64,000 nt of DNA. It comes from an uncultured delta proteobacterium. Lineage in GTDB: Bacteria > Desulfobacterota > BSN033 > UBA1163. This document shows, piece by piece, positions 2,387-56,250 of the stretch. The stretch spans positions 73,644 to 137,643 of the forward strand of contig CAVQFR010000014.1 in NCBI GenBank assembly GCA_963711845.1, read 5' to 3'. Position 1 is the stretch's first letter. Every line of letters begins with the position of its first letter. Below the pieces are notes generated by a model. It was not told where the DNA came from, made no database searches, and saw only the letters and a program-made list of their open reading frames with translations. The translations under genes were made by a program, and so were the position numbers.

Positions 2387-3094
2387 TCAGGGTCTTGTCA
2401 GTTCAATCTTGAATTTGTAAAGGTCAGGGCGGCAATAGCTAATACTCATGAAGACAGGAGTCCGGTTCCTGGCATAGTATTGTCGCTCAATGACGTAAAC
2501 GGGGGCCCTTTTCTCAATGGAAAGATATTTCGAAATTCTTGCATCTGCTAATGCAACAGTCATGCTTTGGAAGGCATGGTGAACCTTGGTTTTAGATTTC
2601 TCTTCGACAAGAAGAATAATTTCGGTAGTTTCTTTAATTTCACTCCGAGAAATCATTTTCCCTAAATGAGGGGGTAAATAAAGGACCGAGTAGCGGGTCG
2701 CACCTTTTGAAGATGAGAAGACTACCTCCATCTGGAAAACCATCTGCCTCGTCCCTGTTTGGAGGAATTTTGCCACAAAGGGAGGGGGGATTGCTTCCTT
2801 ATATTCCAAAACTTTTATTCTTCCTTCCCGAGCCGACGCGATGAGGTTTTCAATTGTTCCCTTATATCTCAAATGTCTCAGTCCCACTTCCTCGCTTACA
2901 AACGTCCCCTTTCCGCGAATTCGGTATATCAACCCCTCATTGATAAGCTCCAATAGTGCCTGACGAACTGTACCCCGACTGACATGATATTCTTGAGATA
3001 GGTCGATTTCTGATGGGACAAGATCCCCTGCCTTGAGTTCATTAGAGAGAATCCTAGCCCTGAGGATGCTTTTTATTTGGAAGTAAAAAGGCAT
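2387..3094 (-). CDS. GntR/HutC-family transcriptional regulator (wHTH plus UTRA effector domain)
   Basis: N-terminal GntR HTH signature (LPSEIDLSQEYHVSRGTVRQALLELINEGLIYRIRGKGTFV) followed by UTRA-like C-terminal domain; heads the co-directional catabolic cluster; start probably internal Met at 3094. Confidence 0.8.
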   Translation of the reverse strand: MPFYFQIKSILRARILSNELKAGDLVPSEIDLSQEYHVSRGTVRQALLELINEGLIYRIRGKGTFVSEEVGLRHLRYKGTIENLIASAREGRIKVLEYKEAIPPPFVAKFLQTGTRQMVFQMEVVFSSSKGATRYSVLYLPPHLGKMISRSEIKETTEIILLVEEKSKTKVHHAFQSMTVALADARISKYLSIEKRAPVYVIERQYYARNRTPVFMSISYCRPDLYKFKIELTRP

Positions 3095-3239
3095 TGGGCC
3101 GTCTTCAAGTATCACGTTTCTCTCTCCTGAAAATGACTTTTGGCTCTACAAAGGTGTGCCCATTTGAACGTCACGAACCCCTGAAAATTGAGACGTGACT
3201 GATTGACTAGATGTCCATACATTACTACACCTGAAAAAA

Positions 3240-3625
3240 ATGTCAAGAAAAAAATTTATTGGAGTGCTTAAATCTTCTTCGGCTTATCGGTATGTGTTTC
3301 ATCGAAACCAGGAACCCATAAAAGATTTTCGTTGGGCATGGGATATCCGCTGCCGGCAAGCGGGCTTGAAAGGGAGCCTATTCCATGACTTCAGAAGAAC
3401 TACGGTAAGGAATATGGTCGGAGCAGGAGTCCCAAAGGAGTGGCAATGAACATCTCGGACCATAACACGCGGAGCGTGTCCGATCGCTGTAACATCGTTA
3501 ATGATCGGGACCTAATAGAAGCAGCTTTGAAGAAACAGGCTTACCATGAGAAGCAGAACGCATTAGTTGGAAGTGATCAGAAGCGGGGAGAGGTTATCCC
3601 TTTCAAACAGGCACAAAATGAGTAG
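3240..3625 (+). pseudogene. tyrosine recombinase/integrase C-terminal remnant (truncated and frameshifted)
   Basis: Two short ORFs in different frames (3240..3449, 3440..3625) together spell an integrase C-terminus: ...LFHDFRRTTVRNMVGAGVPKEW / ...ISDHNTRSVSDRCNIV...; no N-terminal/catalytic core upstream; lies immediately 3' of tRNA-Leu. Confidence 0.55.
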
Positions 3626-5334: not shown

Positions 5335-5525
5335 TCACACTCCCACTAAGACTAATTCCCCCACTAGCAGGTTGTTGAAAAAGAGACTATTTCTCAGGCT
5401 GCTCAAAAATGCCCAGATGCAAGGCTCCCGAAATCCTGAGGAATGAGGCGTACTTGGAGGTACGCCGCAATGACGAAGGATGAGGGAAACGAAGCAGATG
5501 GGCGTTTTTCAGCAGCCTGCTAGAT

Positions 5526-6695
5526 TCAAGGGAGTCTCTGTCTAACTCCTCTGATGATATCGACCACATTATTCTGCATCTTTCCATCTTTGATATCTGC
5601 CACACAGATATAAAGGTCGGCGATCACTTGCCCTCGCTCGTCAAAGCGGATCGGTCCCCGCGGGCTGTTCAGGGAGACCTTGGAAATGGCCGCCAGGAAT
5701 TTGTCTTTATCGGAGAGATTCCCTTTAACGCTGGTAGCGGCTGCCAGGATGACCTTGGCGGCATCATAAGCATTCACACTGGGCAACGACGGGTCGGTAT
5801 TAAATTTGGCTCGAAAAGCGGCCACGAACTTCTTATTTTCGGGAAGATCGATGGTCGGTGTGTACGGAGTGACCACCGTATTCCCTTTGATAAAATCCTT
5901 GATCGAATCCATGATCGTTTCTTCATTGATGCCGATCCAGCCGGTCAGGGGTATCTTATCCTTGAGACCGAAGTCCACGTATTGGGAATCAAATTTCACT
6001 GCATCCGCGCCCGCATACCAGGCATATACCGCATCGATATCCCTTCTCATCTGCGAAAGGTAAGGCCCGAAATCAGGCGTATTCATCGGCGTGTAGACCT
6101 CCTGAAGAATCTGCCCTCCCATCTGCTCAAAGCCTTTTTTGAAAGCAGCCACCGAATCACGGCCTGCCGGAAAATCAATGCCAAACCCAACCATTTTACG
6201 ATATCCTTTTTTCTTATAAAGCCACTCCGCAAAGGGGAAATTCGCCTGGCTCGGTATCACCTGGAGGCGAAACGTATACTTGTTGGCCAGGGGCGGAAGC
6301 GTCAGATTCTCCGGCATGGCCAGGGGTACAATCCAGGGAACCTTCTGTTGGACAACGTAGTCCCTCATGGCCACGGCAGCAGCAGCGTTGACAGGCCCCA
6401 TCAGGACATCGATATGGTCCTTCTCCACCAGTTTCTGGGTCTTGGTCAGTGCAATGGCCGGTGACATGACCTCGTCTTCTATGATAACCTTGATGGTCTT
6501 GCCGGCGACACGGTTGGACACTTCATCAAGAGCCAGGGTAAATCCTCTGATGATGTGCGTGCCCTGGAATGTCATTGGACCTGTCTGGGACGCCAGAAGA
6601 CCGATCGTGATCGATTCTTCCGCGCTGAAGGCTGCCAGAGGGAATACGAAGAGGACGATAAAAAGGATGAGTAGCGTGTGCCGGGTCTTTTTCAT
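5526..6695 (-). CDS. ABC transporter substrate-binding protein, branched-chain amino acid (LivK/Leu-Ile-Val-binding) family
   Basis: 389-aa ORF with N-terminal signal peptide (MKKTRHTLLILFIVLFVFPLAAFSA) and type-I periplasmic binding protein fold sequence; divergent from permease/ATPase genes. Confidence 0.85.
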   Translation of the reverse strand: MKKTRHTLLILFIVLFVFPLAAFSAEESITIGLLASQTGPMTFQGTHIIRGFTLALDEVSNRVAGKTIKVIIEDEVMSPAIALTKTQKLVEKDHIDVLMGPVNAAAAVAMRDYVVQQKVPWIVPLAMPENLTLPPLANKYTFRLQVIPSQANFPFAEWLYKKKGYRKMVGFGIDFPAGRDSVAAFKKGFEQMGGQILQEVYTPMNTPDFGPYLSQMRRDIDAVYAWYAGADAVKFDSQYVDFGLKDKIPLTGWIGINEETIMDSIKDFIKGNTVVTPYTPTIDLPENKKFVAAFRAKFNTDPSLPSVNAYDAAKVILAAATSVKGNLSDKDKFLAAISKVSLNSPRGPIRFDERGQVIADLYICVADIKDGKMQNNVVDIIRGVRQRLP

Positions 6696-15030: not shown

Positions 15031-15079
15031 CCCCTCACCCTTCCCCTCTCCCCAGCGGGAGAGGGTGGGAGTGAGGGGG
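15031..15079. repeat. GC-rich palindromic repeat, copy 1 (CCCCTCACCCTTCCCCTCTCCCC / GGGAGAGGGTGGGAGTGAGGGGG)
   Basis: Read directly; immediately 3' of the peroxidase gene; related copies at 28669, 36175, 46536, 56160. Confidence 0.6.
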
Positions 15080-17726: not shown

Positions 17727-17845
17727 GTGGAGCCCCACGGGCAAAGCCCGTGGCACCTGACTAACGCCCGAGAGGGGCGACATCCCGGCCAAAAGTTGGC
17801 GCATTCATCCACGGCCAAAGGCCGTGGCTTTCTGCTGCCGGGGTA
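17727..17845. repeat. dispersed ~120-bp hairpin-rich repeat, copy A
   Basis: gtggagccccacgggcaaagcccgtgg...ggcgcattcatccacggccaaaggccgtgg...ccggggta; about 85-90% identical by eye to 51967..52086. Confidence 0.65.
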
Positions 17846-18174
17846 GACCGTCTACCTCGCAAAGAGCGAAGCCGATTTCCTATCATCGATGATCAACAGA
17901 TTCCCCGGGTTATTCTCCTCAGCAGCCTTTTTCTCCGAATCGTCACAGCGACACCAACCGTCCTGGTTCTTTTCTGCACTCTCGCAACGTTCTGCGTTTC
18001 CTTCCAGTCTAATAGCTTAGGGGAGGCAGAGGGCTTCAGCCTTAATGGAAGTGTATTAGAGCAAGAACACTGCGTCAATAAGAATTGGAAGAATGGAAGG
18101 GTGGCTACCTCCAAATTCCATGACCTTACATCGCGTGGCTGGGCAGGCGAAGACCTGTACTCCTTTGAAATTAT

Positions 18175-28668: not shown

Positions 28669-28718
28669 ACCCCTCGCCCCTCCCTCTCCCCTGAGGGGAG
28701 AGGGGAAGGGTGAGGGGG
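28669..28718. repeat. GC-rich palindromic repeat, copy 2
   Basis: cccctcgcccctccctctcccctgaggggagaggggaagggtgaggggg. Confidence 0.6.
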
Positions 28719-28730
28719 AATTGTGAAATT

Positions 28731-29831: not shown

Positions 29832-29991
29832 CCGACCGGATTCCTTCCCAAACTCAATTGTTACCCGGAGCGCCTGACCGTTTGCGTTCCGACAGAAATG
29901 TCGTTGCGGGCGAAGATCGATACCTATTCAAGAGCCCCCTGTTCACCCCGTTAGAAAACTTCGCAACATCCCATCCCCTTACTAACGAGGT

Positions 29992-30249
29992 TCACCCCGC
30001 GACTTTGTAGACGACGTCGTGTTCTCTCACTCGGTCCTTTATCTTAATCCCGATATCCGCACCCGGGCCTGCTTCCTGGACACTCTTGTTCTCAATCTGC
30101 ATGGAGTCGATGGTTTGAGTCACATCAGTCGTATGGCCGACGATGTGGATGGACTCCCCGACCTTCAACGATCCCTCTGATAACCGTATCGCGGCAACGC
30201 CAACCTTTCCGAAATATTTGATCACTTCCCCTATTTTCCTCTCCTCCAT
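29992..30249 (-). CDS. small beta-barrel protein (EF-Tu domain-2-like)
   Basis: 85-aa ORF MEERKIGEVIKYFGKVGVAAIRLSEGSLKVGESIHIVG…. Confidence 0.4.
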   Translation of the reverse strand: MEERKIGEVIKYFGKVGVAAIRLSEGSLKVGESIHIVGHTTDVTQTIDSMQIENKSVQEAGPGADIGIKIKDRVREHDVVYKVAG

Positions 30250-42896: not shown

Positions 42897-43115
42897 AATT
42901 CCCTCCCCGGGAGCCTATGTTATTTTATTGCTTTTTTTGTAGAAGCCTTCCGACGTATTACTATGTAAATTTATCCGAACCGAACTGCCTTGTCAACCCC
43001 GTTAGATAAGTAACATAACGGATTTCCCTTTTTTCTGAAATCCTTGCATTAACATTTACACGCTTAAACCATTAAGACCTATCTAACGGGGTCAAGGACG
43101 GGTCTCATCGATTTG

Positions 43116-43202: not shown

Positions 43203-46031
43203 ATGAAAAGTTCGAAATATGTCTACCTTTTTGAAGAAGCCGATGGGACCGATAAGAAACTCCTTGGCGGGAAAGGAGCGGGTTTGGCCGAAATGACCCG
43301 TATGGGTCTCCCTGTTCCGCCTGGATTTATCGTCACCACCGAGGCTTGTCTTCATTTTTATGAGAACAAAAAGAGACTTCCTAAAGGCCTCCTGGAAGAG
43401 GTGGAAGTCAATCTGAAAATGGTGGAGGAAAAAACAGGCAAAAAACTTGGAAGCGCTCAAAATCCCCTCTTCTTCTCTGTCCGGTCGGGCGCGGCGATGT
43501 CCATGCCTGGAATGATGGACACCATTCTCAATTTGGGCTTAAACGAGAAGACTCTTGAGGGTTTGATCCAGATCACGTCGGATGGAAGATTTGCCTATGA
43601 TGCTTACCGAAGATTTATTCAACTTTTCGGAAAGATCGCCTTGGGGTTGGAAGAAAAGGAATTTGACCAAATCCTTAACCAGACAAAAGAAAGAGTGGGG
43701 GCCAAAGAGGATATTGATCTCAATGCTGATTATCTCAAGGACATTTGTAAACAATATCTGGGATTAATCAAAAAAAGGACGGGAACCCCTTTTCCTCAAG
43801 ACCCGATGGTTCAACTCAGACTCGCCATTGAAGCGGTTTTCAAATCCTGGATGGGCAAGAGGGCGGTGGATTATCGAAAGGAATTCAACATCACCCGTGA
43901 CATGGCGAACGGAACCGCCGTCAATGTCTGCACCATGGTTTTTGGGAACATGGGTTTTGACTCGGCAACGGGGGTTGCGTTTACACGAGACCCGGGCACA
44001 GGAGAGAACATTCTCTATGGGGAATATCTTGTGAATGCCCAGGGTGAAGATGTCGTGGCCGGGATCCGGACACCCAAACCCATCCAAGAGATGAAGAAGG
44101 AAATGCCGAAAACCTACCGAGAGATGGAGCGGATCAGAAAAATCTTGGAAGAGCATTTTCATGAAGTTCAGGACTTCGAGTTCACCGTGGAGAAGGGGAC
44201 CCTCTATATCCTTCAAACTCGAAATGGGAAGATGAACGCTCAGGCGATCGTTCGAACTTCTAAAGACATGGTCTCTGAAAAACTAATTAATAAGGAAAAA
44301 GCTGTCCTGAGATTGAAACCTCAAGAGCTGGAACAACTCCTCCATAAGCGGATCGATCCAAATTTCAAGGGGAAACCAGTCTGCGTCGGCCTCGCAGCTT
44401 CCCCGGGAGCAGCCTCCGGAAAAGCAGTGTTCGATGCGGATGAAGCAGAAAGGTTGGGAAAACTTGGGCAAAAACTCATATTGGTGCGAGAGGAAACGAA
44501 ACCCGAGGATATTCATGGCTTCTTTGCTGCCCAGGGGATCTTGACGAGCCGGGGAGGAAAGACCTCCCATGCCGCAGTGGTCGCAAGGGGTATGGGCAAA
44601 CCCTGTGTATCTGGATGCGAAGAGTTGCACATCGATCCACAGAAGAGAGAGACCACCGTAGGGAATATTCACATCAAAGAAGGAGATTTCATCACCATCG
44701 ATGGCTCCAGAGGCGAGGTCTATCTGGGAGAGGTCCCTACCGTAGACCCTGAAATCAGCAAAGACCTCCTTACGCTCCTGGGTTGGGGGGATGGGATAAG
44801 AACGTTGGGCGTTCGGGCCAATGCCGATACCCCTGAGGCCGCGATCAAAGCAAGGCAGCTGGGTGCAGAAGGGATCGGTCTCTGCCGAACAGAGAGAATG
44901 TTCAACGCCGCGGATCGGCTCCCCATTGTTCGGGAGATGATCTTGGCGGGGTCGAAAGAGAAGAGGGCAGAAGCGATTGCAAAGCTTCTTCCCATGCAGC
45001 GCAGCGACTTTAAGGAGATCTTCAGGGCCATGGAAGGACTGCCGGTGACCATCCGTCTCCTCGACCCACCGCTTCATGAATTTCTCCCATCCGCCGAAGA
45101 ACTGGCCGAAGAATTGAGAAAGCTGAAGGAGATTGATACCGCCTTTTCCACCATGGAAAACATCTCTGATGCGATGAAGTTTCTGGATCCCTCTTTCCGC
45201 GAATCACTGGGACTCCTCGACCACGTGGTGACGGATATCGTCGAGATTAAAGAGAAGAGGCTCGATAAGAAGCTCATCCGAAAAGAGCAGGAAACTCTCA
45301 GGAAGGTGAAAGAGATGATGGAGGTCAACCCCATGCTGGGTCATCGAGGGGTCAGGTTGGGGATTACCTATCCAGAGATCTATAAGATGCAGATTCAGGC
45401 GATTCTGGAGGCCGCCGCCGAGTTGATCAAAGAAGGTCTTGATATTCAACCTGAAATTATGGTCCCCCAAGTCTGCACCGCCCAAGAATTGAAATGGGTT
45501 TCTCAACTCGTCTTAAAGGTCCAAAAGGAAGTGGAGAAACAATTTAGAATCCGGATCCCCTTCAAATTCGGGACGATGATCGAAGTGGTGAGAGCCTGTA
45601 TGAGGGCCGGGAGATTGGCGGAGGTGGCAGACTTCTTCTCCTTCGGGACCAACGACCTCACTCAGGCCACCTTCTCTTTCTCCAGAGAAGATGCGGAAAA
45701 CAAATTCCTGCCCCTTTACAATCAGCGGAAGATTCTCCAGGACAATCCCTTTGAAGTATTGGATGTGAAAGGCGTGGGAAGGTTAATGATGATCGCGATC
45801 GAGTGGGGAAGGAGGACAAAACCGGATCTGAAGATTGGGATCTGTGGTGAACATGGTGGGCATCCGGAATCGGTCGAATTCAGTCACAGCATCGGACTTT
45901 CCTATGTCAGTTGCTCTGCTCCACGCCTCCCGATTGCGCGTCTGGCAGCCGCCCATGCCAAATTGAAAGAGAAGGAGAAAAAACCTTCGGAAAAATACGA
46001 CCCCGATGTTTTTGGCATACCCTCTGTTTAA
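43203..46031 (+). CDS. ppdK: pyruvate, phosphate dikinase
   Basis: About 940-aa ORF with PPDK N-terminus (KYVYLFEEADG…GGKGAGLAEM), phosphohistidine domain (GGKTSHAAVVARGMGKPCVSG) and C-terminal PEP-binding barrel; ATG 43203 preferred (SD AGAAGGAAG). Confidence 0.95.
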   Translation: MKSSKYVYLFEEADGTDKKLLGGKGAGLAEMTRMGLPVPPGFIVTTEACLHFYENKKRLPKGLLEEVEVNLKMVEEKTGKKLGSAQNPLFFSVRSGAAMSMPGMMDTILNLGLNEKTLEGLIQITSDGRFAYDAYRRFIQLFGKIALGLEEKEFDQILNQTKERVGAKEDIDLNADYLKDICKQYLGLIKKRTGTPFPQDPMVQLRLAIEAVFKSWMGKRAVDYRKEFNITRDMANGTAVNVCTMVFGNMGFDSATGVAFTRDPGTGENILYGEYLVNAQGEDVVAGIRTPKPIQEMKKEMPKTYREMERIRKILEEHFHEVQDFEFTVEKGTLYILQTRNGKMNAQAIVRTSKDMVSEKLINKEKAVLRLKPQELEQLLHKRIDPNFKGKPVCVGLAASPGAASGKAVFDADEAERLGKLGQKLILVREETKPEDIHGFFAAQGILTSRGGKTSHAAVVARGMGKPCVSGCEELHIDPQKRETTVGNIHIKEGDFITIDGSRGEVYLGEVPTVDPEISKDLLTLLGWGDGIRTLGVRANADTPEAAIKARQLGAEGIGLCRTERMFNAADRLPIVREMILAGSKEKRAEAIAKLLPMQRSDFKEIFRAMEGLPVTIRLLDPPLHEFLPSAEELAEELRKLKEIDTAFSTMENISDAMKFLDPSFRESLGLLDHVVTDIVEIKEKRLDKKLIRKEQETLRKVKEMMEVNPMLGHRGVRLGITYPEIYKMQIQAILEAAAELIKEGLDIQPEIMVPQVCTAQELKWVSQLVLKVQKEVEKQFRIRIPFKFGTMIEVVRACMRAGRLAEVADFFSFGTNDLTQATFSFSREDAENKFLPLYNQRKILQDNPFEVLDVKGVGRLMMIAIEWGRRTKPDLKIGICGEHGGHPESVEFSHSIGLSYVSCSAPRLPIARLAAAHAKLKEKEKKPSEKYDPDVFGIPSV

Positions 46032-46389: not shown

Positions 46390-46468
46390 TCACTTCAATT
46401 CCGGCCCGCCTTTTCCTCTTCCAAAGATCCCGCGAAAAATATATTTTCTCCTCTCAGCCATGAACAGA

Positions 46469-46533
46469 AAATCCTCCGGTACAATCCCTTTGAAGTATTG
46501 GATGTGAAGTGCGTGGGAAGACTAATGAGGATC
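46469..46533. repeat. ~65-bp duplicate of an internal ppdK segment (source 45730..45795)
   Basis: acaatccctttgaagtattggatgtgaag.gcgtgggaag..taatga matches ppdK coding sequence about 700 bp upstream at roughly 85-90% identity. Confidence 0.7.
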
Positions 46534-46535
46534 TG

Positions 46536-46574
46536 TCCCCCTCTCCCCTCAGGGAGAGGGGAAGGGTGAGGGGG
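46536..46574. repeat. GC-rich palindromic repeat, copy 4 (partial)
   Basis: ccccctctcccctcagggagaggggaagggtgaggggg. Confidence 0.6.
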
Positions 46575-46593
46575 AAATTTCAGATATCTTTGG

Positions 46594-49459: not shown

Positions 49460-49720
49460 ATGGAAACATCAGCAACTATCAAAGGACAGGTGGTCATCCC
49501 GGCAAAGATCAGGCATCGTCTGCGAATTAAGAAGGGCACCAAATTCTATGTCGAAGAGCGAAAAGGGGAAATAATCCTTCGTCCCCTAAACAAGGAATAT
49601 TTTCAAAAGATGAGTGGTGTTCTTAAGGGAGGAGGACTTATCAAGGCATTAGAAGAAACCAGGGCCGACGATCTTAGGCGAGAGGAGGAGAAAATTGGCC
49701 GCCGCAAAGGTTCTCGATAG
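49460..49720 (+). CDS. AbrB/MazE/SpoVT-family antitoxin
   Basis: N-terminal swapped-hairpin motif TIKGQVVIPAKIRHRLRIKKGTKF…GEIILRP. Confidence 0.7.
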   Translation: METSATIKGQVVIPAKIRHRLRIKKGTKFYVEERKGEIILRPLNKEYFQKMSGVLKGGGLIKALEETRADDLRREEEKIGRRKGSR

Positions 49721-50096
49721 TTGGGCCCTTCTCTGCTACCTTGAGCAAGAACCCGGTTATGAGAAGATAATCGACCTCTTCGACAAAGCTGTTGAGTCCT
49801 CCAAGCCTCTCTTAATGTGCATCGTGAACTGGGGAGAGGTTTATTACCAGGTGATGAGGCGGTTTGGAGATCAAAAAGCACAAGAGATTGAGCAGCTCAT
49901 TCAGACCCTACCGATCACACTGATTGAAGCCAATAAAGAAATTACGCGGGAGGCGGCGCGCATAAAAGCCACAAAACGGATGGCCTATGCGGATTGTTTT
50001 GCCGTCGCCCTCGCCCGCCTAAAAAAAGCAGAACTTTATACAGGGGATAATGAGTTCAAAGCCGTGGAGAAAGAAACAAAGATTGTTTGGCTTTAG
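49695..50096 (+). CDS. PIN-domain toxin (VapC-like)
   Basis: PIN acidic residues in VLDSWALL…, AYADCFAVALA, TGDNEF; TTG start overlapping antitoxin 3' end. Confidence 0.7.
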   Translation: MAAAKVLDSWALLCYLEQEPGYEKIIDLFDKAVESSKPLLMCIVNWGEVYYQVMRRFGDQKAQEIEQLIQTLPITLIEANKEITREAARIKATKRMAYADCFAVALARLKKAELYTGDNEFKAVEKETKIVWL

Positions 50097-51708: not shown

Positions 51709-51966
51709 TCTCTTTCTAACGGAAATCATCAGTCGTTAATGCAGATCGATCCTCGCTCTTTGTAGGTGAAGCGGTTGTCCTGAAAGTCTTTGTCAATTCA
51801 AGTCTTAAGTTTTATAAAGTAAACCGCGTTAGAAAGGGCAGAGCTTTGACACCGCCCTCAATAAGGAGCTGATACTTTCTATTCCACCATCCCCAGCATA
51901 AATGCTGGGGCTTTCTAACGGGGTAAAGCTCTCTGCCCACAGAGTGGGGCATTCTTCATCATTTTC

Positions 51967-52086
51967 GTGGAGCCCCACGGGCATAGCCCGTGGTACCCTA
52001 CTTCACGCCTCAGCGGGGCGACATCCCGGCCAAACGCTGGCGCATTCATCCACGGGCAAAGCCCGTAGCCTTCTGCTGTCGGGGTA
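51967..52086. repeat. dispersed ~120-bp hairpin-rich repeat, copy B
   Basis: gtggagccccacgggcatagcccgtgg…ggcgcattcatccacgggcaaagcccgtag…tcggggta; partial extra copy of the 3' part immediately upstream (about 51905..51960). Confidence 0.65.
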
Positions 52087-52187
52087 AAAGATCTGGTTCA
52101 AAAAATAGGGAGGCTAAAACCCCCATGCCCTCGGGGGTCAGGTGAAAATGGTTCAGATCAATGACGATATCTCACTAAATTTATTAC

Positions 52188-52595
52188 TCATGTTCTTTTG
52201 CTTTTTGATATCTCCCAAAATTCTCTTGGAGTTATGATTGGGACTGAATGGAACTTCTTCAGCACAAGAAGATCCTTATCTCCAGTAATGATGTAATCGG
52301 GTTTGGCTACTTCAGAAAGACCAAGAATTTTGACATCATCAATATCTCTGCAGGCGTCTTTATCTAACCTTTTATGGTCGCTGAATGTACAAAATTCCTT
52401 CAAATATTCAGTGATCATGAGAACCTTATCCTTAGGCATCTTCATTTTTTTCTGTAAATTCCTTTGAACCTCAGATAGGATGTGTTCGCTGATAATGATT
52501 TCATGCTTTTCCAGGCAGAGTTCAAAAAGGGCGTGGGCCAGCCCTCGCCCTGCAAAGGCCGCTAAAATAACATTTGTATCGAGAATTACTCTCAT
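52188..52595 (-). CDS. PIN-domain toxin (VapC-like)
   Basis: MRVILDTNVILAAF…DIDDVKIL…ITGDKDL; 4-bp overlap with upstream antitoxin. Confidence 0.75.
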   Translation of the reverse strand: MRVILDTNVILAAFAGRGLAHALFELCLEKHEIIISEHILSEVQRNLQKKMKMPKDKVLMITEYLKEFCTFSDHKRLDKDACRDIDDVKILGLSEVAKPDYIITGDKDLLVLKKFHSVPIITPREFWEISKSKRT

Positions 52596-52810
52596 GATAC
52601 TTCTTTATAGACATCCTCGTCTGTAAGGATGCCCTGGGCCTCTGCAAAAGGGAGAACCATATTTCGAAGTCTACGAAACCGGTAGATGGCTATATACCTC
52701 TTCAACGATTCTCTAACGAGATCGCTAATGGGTTTCCCCTCTGCCTTACTGATCTCCTGTAATCCCTCTCTTAAATCATCAGGAATTCTGATGGTCAGGG
52801 TCTGATTCAT
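52592..52810 (-). CDS. ribbon-helix-helix (CopG-like) antitoxin
   Basis: MNQTLTIRIPDDLREGLQEISKAEGKPISDLVRESLKRYI; ORF track extends upstream into glyS 3' end, start taken at internal Met. Confidence 0.65.
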   Translation of the reverse strand: MNQTLTIRIPDDLREGLQEISKAEGKPISDLVRESLKRYIAIYRFRRLRNMVLPFAEAQGILTDEDVYKEVS

Positions 52811-56159: not shown

Positions 56160-56250
56160 TCCTCCCCCTTGACGGGGGAGGACTAAGGTGGGGGTGGACA
56201 GGATGTGCTCCCCCTCACCCCCACCCTCTCCCGCAAGGGGAGAGGGAGAT
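56160..56250. repeat. GC-rich palindromic repeat, copy 5 (with adjacent CCTCCCCCTTGACGGGGGAGG hairpin)
   Basis: cccctcacccccaccctctcccgcaaggggagaggg. Confidence 0.55.

Follow-up and report, generated by a model that had tools for sequence, protein, structure and literature searches.

A hairpin-rich repeat of Syntrophaceae-like genomes is probably a gene-less mobile element with IS200/IS605-type ends

We describe a dispersed repeat of about 120 nucleotides (nt) that is probably a non-autonomous member of the IS200/IS605 family, made up of its two ends, left and right, without intervening genes. Two copies lie in a 64,000-nt stretch of DNA from an uncultured delta proteobacterium, referred to here as the window; the top strand of the element is the minus strand of the window. 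The assignment is based on the anatomy of the ends, a flanking TTAC, complementarity and covariation between guide and cleavage motifs, the existence of empty and filled sites, the copy number and the lack of coding capacity. The enzyme, a single-strand circle and activity in present-day cells are inferred. Gene-less elements of this kind, called PATEs (palindrome-associated transposable elements), have been described in Haloquadratum, Geobacillus and other organisms as minimal IS200/IS605 ends that are present in many copies and are presumed to be mobilized in trans (PMC3119063; PMC10055086). The family that we found is real and abundant, probably of this known kind, and apparently undescribed. 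A literature search with strings from the element sequence returned nothing relevant.

A preliminary description of the window reported two repeats of about 120 bp with roughly 85-90% identity, and alignment bore this out. Copies A (17727-17845) and B (51967-52086; plus-strand coordinates) are identical at 104 of 121 positions (86%) over their full length, with a single 1-nt insertion or deletion. The hairpin pattern occurs eight times in the window when both strands are counted, versus a chance expectation of 0.06. A covariance model built from the family detects copy A with 149 bits (E 1e-33) and copy B with 130 bits (E 4e-29), and scanning the 64 kb with this model revealed no further full copies. 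Both copies are intergenic and, because of the 1-nt indel, have no shared reading frame, which rules out a duplicated coding gene as the source of the similarity. What had been taken for a partial copy of the 3′ part just upstream of copy B (51888-51930) is instead the right end of a different inverted-repeat family, which extends from approximately 51820 to 51930.

The surroundings of the two copies differ. Copy A is located between a 110-amino-acid open reading frame (ORF) on the opposite strand, whose start codon is 27 nt away, and the genes for tRNA-Cys and tRNA-Gly; nearby small ORFs have no Pfam match. Two gene sets converge on copy B, and the copy is downstream of an RHH-PIN toxin-antitoxin pair. 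Terminator-like hairpins flank it on both sides, and no promoter-like site was seen at this copy. That both copies border accessory modules, as first proposed, is correct locally and is not a trait of the family, whose neighbors are unrelated ordinary genes. The accessory islet near copy B contains two toxin-antitoxin pairs, a MazE/AbrB-type antitoxin with a PIN toxin (49460-50096, plus strand) and an RHH antitoxin with a PIN toxin (52188-52804, minus strand), together with three ORFs that lack a Pfam match. It is situated between an acyl-CoA synthetase-like gene and glyS.

In copy A, the element proper comprises 116 nt (17727-17842, minus strand), with boundaries taken from a logo of the flanks and from the empty sites discussed below. 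Read on the minus strand, copy A and its flanks are ...GGT-CTAC^CCCGGCAGCAG-AAAG-[CCACGGCCTTTGGCCGTGG]-ATGA-ATGC-[GCCAACTTTTGGC]-...-GGTG-[CCACGGGCTTTGCCCGTGG]-GGCT-CCAC^AGG..., where the brackets enclose, in order, the left subterminal hairpin (IP_L), a second small left-end hairpin and the right subterminal hairpin (IP_R). All parts are on the minus strand. The left cleavage or target motif (C_L, TAM) is CTAC in the flanking DNA (17843-17846), compared to TTAC in the family consensus. The left guide (G_L), AAAG (17828-17831), abuts the IP_L foot on its 5′ side, and 11 nt separate this guide from the left end. IP_L (17809-17827) has an 8-bp stem, a TTT loop on the top strand and compensatory changes in the family. 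The ATGA that follows its foot (17805-17808) contains candidate base-triplet partners of G_L. The second small hairpin reads GCCAA-CTT-TTGGC on the top strand (17788-17800), and a central hairpin, H2, with the conserved core GGGGCGACATCCCGGCCAAA in plus-strand reading, occupies 17765-17793. At the right end, the guide (G_R) is GGTG (17754-17757), directly 5′ of the foot of IP_R (17735-17753), which has the same orientation as IP_L and, like it, an 8-bp stem and a TTT loop on the top strand. The right cleavage motif (C_R, TEM), CCAC (17727-17730), forms the last 4 nt of the element, which ends 8 nt 3′ of the IP_R foot. The paired hairpins of the preliminary description, CCACGGGCAAAGCCCGTGG and CCACGGCCAAAGGCCGTGG, are exact and correspond to IP_R and IP_L, respectively. 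A short palindrome, GTAGAC-G-GTCTAC on the minus strand, is present in the left flank of copy A (17846-17858), and its stem includes the CTAC that adjoins the element.

Copy B is 117 nt long (51967-52083, minus strand) and looks partly decayed. On the same strand, it has a flanking TTAC (52084-52087), a G_L of AAGG (52069-52072), equivalents of IP_L (52050-52068) and IP_R (51975-51993), a G_R of GGTA (51994-51997) and the right cleavage motif CCAC (51967-51970). The signs of decay are a mismatch in IP_L (CTACGGGC...GCCCGTGG) and the GGTA guide that faces CCAC.

The ends of the family are well defined. The plus-strand 5′ edge is sharp and begins GTGGAGCC. At the other edge, the plus-strand bases G, T, A, A and A that follow CCGGG are kept at 97, 87, 87, 99 and 81 of 114 sites, respectively, and the sequence is random beyond. 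In top-strand reading, the conserved flank is TTTAC (81, 99, 87, 87 and 97 of 114 sites), and the end pattern of the family is TTAC^CCCGGCAGCAGAAAG-hairpin ... hairpin-GGCTCCAC^. The flank logo contains no terminal inverted repeats. Target-site duplications, which had been suggested as a check on the flanks, are absent both from the logo and from the alignment of empty and filled sites at the fetched locus L069.

Locus L069 contains a paralogous pair of small ORFs. The empty member reads AAGC-TTAC^ATACATT on the minus strand, and its paralog, as well as the ortholog of that paralog in L122, carries an 87-nt variant at exactly that point, a clean insertion. The two paralogs (minus strand; filled, 3075-3341; empty, 5500-5679) are 2.4 kb apart. 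The 87-nt variant is in frame within the putative small ORF, which encodes 59 amino acids when empty and 88 when filled, reminiscent of the in-frame palindromic elements of Rickettsia. Comparison of an empty site in L083 (...GATTAG) with its filled counterpart in L027 (...GATTAC^) agrees with this insertion point, with TTAG at the position of insertion. Presence and absence were also evident upstream of slt-pgsA, where L010 carries an element between the conserved promoter and the start codon and the window has none.

Since TTAC and CCAC both end in AC, the position of the junctions is ambiguous by 2 nt, and the shared AC also creates an apparent direct repeat, GT...GT (or AT...AT), at the ends. 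We had considered a 2-bp GT target duplication, or a core dinucleotide for recombination of the serine recombinase or IS110 type, either of which accounts for the GT...GT ends. We now prefer a reading modeled on IS608, because there the shared AC also predicts covariation with the guides. The earlier suggestion of a MITE-like element thus holds insofar as the element is mobile and non-autonomous; with neither terminal inverted repeats nor a target-site duplication, it is not a classical MITE.

IS608 is cut at its left end after a flanking TTAC, which precedes the left hairpin by 19 nt, and at its right end after TCAA, 10 nt beyond the right hairpin on the 3′ side (PMC3201880, PMC5934647). Each site is recognized by the tetranucleotide on the 5′ side of a hairpin foot, AAAG for G_L and GAAT for G_R, with which it pairs; T-4 pairs with A+17 and T-3 with A+16, and the A and T next to the left hairpin on its 3′ side join these pairs in triplets (PMC3201880, PMC5934647). 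The sequence 3′ of IP_L is ATAC, and a second left-end hairpin occurs in IS608, ISDra2 and IS605 (PMC5934647). The consensus of our family closely parallels this arrangement. It has the TTAC flank, a left guide of AAAG (AAGG in a second subfamily), ATGA after IP_L, so that AT is directly 3′ of the left hairpin as in IS608, and the second small hairpin. As in IS608, each guide is the tetranucleotide on the 5′ side of a hairpin foot, and cleavage sites are 5′ of the hairpin at the left end and 3′ of the hairpin at the right end. The two subterminal hairpins of the family have one orientation on one strand. Also as in IS608, there are no inverted terminal repeats and no duplication, and target specificity shifts with the guide.

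Other features set the family apart from IS608. There is no tnpA or tnpB between the ends, and the total length is approximately 116 nt. The distances to the cleavage sites are 15 nt on the left (68 of 95 sites) and 8 nt on the right, rather than 19 and 10 nt. The right-end pair is CCAC/GGTG, with complementarity across all four positions, in place of TCAA/GAAT. The stems are perfect, with 8 bp and 3-nt loops, whereas the IS608 hairpins are imperfect palindromes. Finally, both cleavage motifs end in AC, and a central core is complementary to the joined termini.

We assayed covariation between guides and cleavage motifs using the IS608 rule, in which c-4 pairs with g2, c-3 with g1 and c-1 with g4 (PMC5934647), at 116 non-redundant sites with Fisher tests. 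For c-1:g4 at the left end, 56 sites were C:G, seven were T:A and six were mismatched (p = 5e-6). For c-3:g1 at the same end, 58 sites were T:A, seven were C:G and six were mismatched (p = 4e-6). The right-end c-1:g4 pair was C:G at 61 sites, T:A at eight and mismatched at eight (p = 5e-6). As two internal positions are compared at the right end, that covariation could come partly from subfamily descent. At the left end, a subfamily whose G_L is GAGA adjoins TCAT, TCGT, TCCT or TTAT at independent loci. Because the bases of the motif are flanking DNA, this agreement reflects target choice and not shared descent, and this one subfamily has apparently been retargeted from TTAC to TCNT. A third position, the second nucleotide 3′ of IP_L, also covaries: the combination of c-3, g1 and this nucleotide is T,A,T at 48 sites and C,G,G at seven. 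In triplex pairing, these combinations fit T·A*T and C·G*G triplets. Approximately 10% of sites violate the guide rule; both window copies contain exceptions, the CTAC of copy A and the GGTA of copy B, which faces CCAC.

If the element behaves like IS608, a Y1 (HUH) transposase from another locus would bind both subterminal hairpins in single-stranded DNA and would locate each cleavage site through its pairing with the tetranucleotide just 5′ of the respective hairpin foot. The top strand would be excised as a circle, and the circle would re-insert 3′ of a TTAC without duplication. A crude scan for HUH motifs in the window and about 0.6 Mb of fetched loci detected neither a Y1 transposase gene nor a full-length element that has these ends, and looking for split ends and long internal inserts in the same DNA yielded no autonomous parent. 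Some copies have an unrelated hairpin at one end only, which is awkward if a single transposase dimer must bind both ends.

Members of the IS200/IS605 family show a preference of the top strand for the lagging-strand template (PMC5027513). The plus strand of the window is C-rich throughout (skew -0.07), so both window copies (two of two) have their top strand on the G-rich strand, that is, the lagging-strand template. Across 83 short loci, the orientation relative to GC skew was 47 versus 36, which is not significant.

Further copies in related genomes, for which the preliminary description had proposed a search, were found in number. A 20-mer from the center of the element has 15 true copies in six species-representative MAGs of Thermodesulfobacteriota/Syntrophaceae, eight of them in one MAG; two additional matches were due to chance. 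MAGs that carry the family include CAYGWV01, CAVOIK01 and JBEKUZ01. Using a gapped pattern, we recovered at least 120 metagenome loci from wetland, sediment and freshwater samples. These loci gave 114 distinct copies among the matches listed, with a modal length of 119-120 nt. A scan of viral contigs returned no match. A CRISPR repeat was also considered and rejected; one locus, L011, is a chance match to a CRISPR spacer. In related strains, contigs hold copies A and B at the same sites, and contigs break inside or beside the element.

Copies show no consistent relationship to the genes around them. With respect to flanking long ORFs, 31 copies are sense and 25 antisense to co-directional genes, 20 are between divergent genes and nine between convergent genes. 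Distances of 0-30 nt to a start or stop codon are common, and a search for enrichment among neighboring genes identified no recurring protein family. Where related strains have orthologous sites, element and flanks diverge about equally fast, and the changes include some that break stems. Across genomes whose PgsA proteins are only 63% identical, copies are nonetheless about 90% identical. Taken together, orientation, neighbors, structure, drift and the likeness across genomes indicate that the element has spread, rather than being selected copy by copy.

As in PATEs, both ends are kept, genes are absent and copies are many. Our family differs from described PATEs in its host lineage, which is new (Syntrophaceae-like Thermodesulfobacteriota), in the failure to find a parent IS in the roughly 0.6 Mb and in the swapping of hairpin cassettes between copies. 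In some copies, whole hairpins are swapped for unrelated ones. Orthologous copies in the L013/L117/L138 group differ in a mosaic fashion, with different subfamilies and different hairpin cassettes, a pattern suggestive of conversion between copies. In place of part of the left hairpin, four loci (L013, L029, L056 and L117) have a small hairpin, TCCCGCC-nnn-GGCGGGA; two others (L048 and L130) have it in place of part of the right hairpin, and it also occurs alone in flanks (L027 and L083). Long variants of 203-225 nt (L051, 6383-6585; L086, 1643-1845; L131, 3527-3750) contain an extra structured module of 85-105 nt. This module is nested at one internal point, with the second left-end hairpin on one side and the left subterminal hairpin on the other.

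The center of the element has no counterpart or role in the IS608 model. The core, GGGGCGACATCCCGGC on the plus strand (17774-17789 and 52015-52030), is complementary to the joined termini (3′ GCCGGG plus 5′ GTGGAGCCCC), with a tandem G-A mismatch. Because it is complementary to both termini, the core would place the ends side by side in single-stranded form. The search pattern itself fixed GGAGCCCCA, GGGCGACATCCCGG and GCCGGG, so their invariance carries no weight, and the same applies to part of the conservation of the core. Conceivably, although we think it unlikely, the central segment (plus strand GGGGCGACAT-CCCGGC) serves as a splint that joins or masks the termini, or as a minimal TnpB guide-RNA scaffold that acts in trans.

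PATEs have been reported to "often encode omega RNAs" that are used in trans (PMC10055086), and this precedent favors a more specific proposal, in which each copy doubles as a guide-RNA gene. The core and the right end would form a minimal omega-RNA scaffold, the DNA just past CCAC, some 16-20 nt, would be the guide for a TnpB encoded elsewhere and TTAC would act as the TAM. Such a role would also account for the central 45 nt (H2 plus GGGGCGACATCCCGGCC), which are highly conserved yet dispensable in the IS608 transposition model. However, part of that conservation was forced by the search pattern, the top strand is unbiased relative to surrounding transcription (25 versus 31) and no tnpB was seen in the window or the fetched loci. 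There was also no Rfam match to any transposon-associated RNA, and typical omega-RNA scaffolds are longer than this element. We therefore regard a guide-RNA gene as improbable.

The preliminary description offered a small structured RNA gene family as the alternative to a mobile element, and the hairpins are indeed maintained. In a model-fitted alignment of 104 copies, 94% of cells in both hairpins are paired, versus 33-45% when partners are slid, and double-change cells, a sign of compensatory change, number 99 versus 20 in shuffles. One explanation is that conserved junctions and variable stems reflect selection on the fold of an RNA, such as an sRNA or a ribozyme. Unpaired blocks are conserved as well, and copies remain about 90% identical despite the 63% identity of PgsA between genomes. 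RNAalifold also predicts a plus-strand fold with two adjacent long-range helices (P1/P2, "splint") and the tandem G-A motif, in segments that the search pattern fixed. In H1, however, 28 G-T and 35 A-C mismatches are balanced, G-U pairs give no strand-specific signal, and folding is slightly better for the minus strand than for the plus strand. The covariance-model search against RNA families that had been suggested gave no relevant match in Rfam (15) even at E ≤ 10. Lack of a promoter also disfavors an RNA gene: none is present at copy B, which lies between convergent terminators. Moreover, orientation is mixed and unbiased with respect to operons, copies lie 0-30 nt from start and stop codons, stem-breaking changes accumulate at the flank rate in orthologous copies and both filled and empty sites exist. 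An RNA gene would also leave the covariation with element-flanking DNA unexplained, and we consider this origin highly unlikely. In copies that are transcribed, the hairpins probably act on mRNA stability or termination, like other intergenic palindromes. Hammerhead, twister and HDV-like ribozymes were discarded, since their core motifs are absent and Rfam gave no match. A tRNA-like end (GGGGCUCCA, minus strand) was also discarded, as it has only 4 bp of acceptor-like pairing.

Intergenic palindromes of other kinds resemble the element in several respects. Like REP/BIME and REPIN-RAYT sequences, it consists of GC-rich intergenic palindromes in mosaic arrangements and is probably processed by a HUH Y1 enzyme on single-stranded hairpins. 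Like ERIC, BOX, Correia and RUP sequences, it is approximately 100-150 bp long and intergenic, occurs in either orientation and has modular length variants. A repeat of either type would have been spread by a RAYT or a classical transposase, or would be a site for a host DNA-binding protein. The cassette swaps in L013, L117 and L138 and the nested modules would fit such an origin. Host genomes contain several other small palindromic repeat families, and the GTGG at the start of the element is similar to the GT[AG]G tag of REPs (PMC3733652). In REPs, however, the tag is adjacent to a single hairpin of 20-40 nt, often in inverted doublets, with neither left/right asymmetry nor a defined tetranucleotide target. 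In the element, 4-6 nt separate GTGG from the stem, the two hairpins are direct rather than inverted and about 55 nt apart, and distinct left and right ends carry the guide/cleavage pairs that REPs lack. ERIC, BOX, Correia and RUP have terminal inverted repeats and usually a TA duplication; the element lacks both such repeats and any duplication, of TA or otherwise. Nor did we see a Y1 gene in its vicinity. Since RAYTs are themselves Y1 enzymes of the IS200/IS605 type, an origin through RAYT differs from a PATE mainly in the partner gene. Overall, a repeat of the REP/BIME or terminal-inverted-repeat type is very improbable.

Two further candidates were set aside. The copies are not a template/variable repeat pair of a DGR, as their differences show no adenine specificity and a reverse transcriptase is lacking, and they are not integron attC sites or the attL/attR of an island beside the tRNA genes, as R-box motifs are absent and the copies are only 86% identical.

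The window contains other repeats. The inverted-repeat family found upstream of copy B has 12-13-nt inverted repeats (ACCCCGTTAGAWA ... TWTCTAACGGGGT) around a variable interior of about 25-75 nt. Its members are at 29940-29995, 42990-43095 and 51820-51930 of the window and in 12 of 139 fetched loci. The member beside copy B is bounded by TAAACCGCGTTAGAAAG and CTTTCTAACGGGGTAAAG, and the right terminus of this family resembles the CTTTCT..CGGGGTAAA end of the 120-nt element. A third family consists of G/C-rich palindromes (CCCCTCACCC..CCCTCTCCC-loop-GGGAGAGGG..GGGTGAGGGG) that occur in both orientations (15031-15078, 28670-28720, 46538-46590 and 56209-56248) and look REP-like or terminator-like. 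There is also a 128-nt direct repeat with 73% identity (45667-45794 and 46406-46533), the starts of which are 739 nt apart.

Identification of the repeat as a probable PATE accounts for a conspicuous sequence that breaks assemblies of Syntrophaceae-like genomes, and the family opens no new question. It is also a caution that structure alone is insufficient for calling hairpin-rich repeats RNA genes. If the central segment did prove to be a splint or a scaffold, the element would be a PATE with an additional, self-encoded layer of control. For these uncultured anaerobes, the element is a marker of insertion polymorphism. For the IS200/IS605 family, it provides natural support for the rules on guides, targets and base triplets that were derived from IS608, here in an unrelated lineage.
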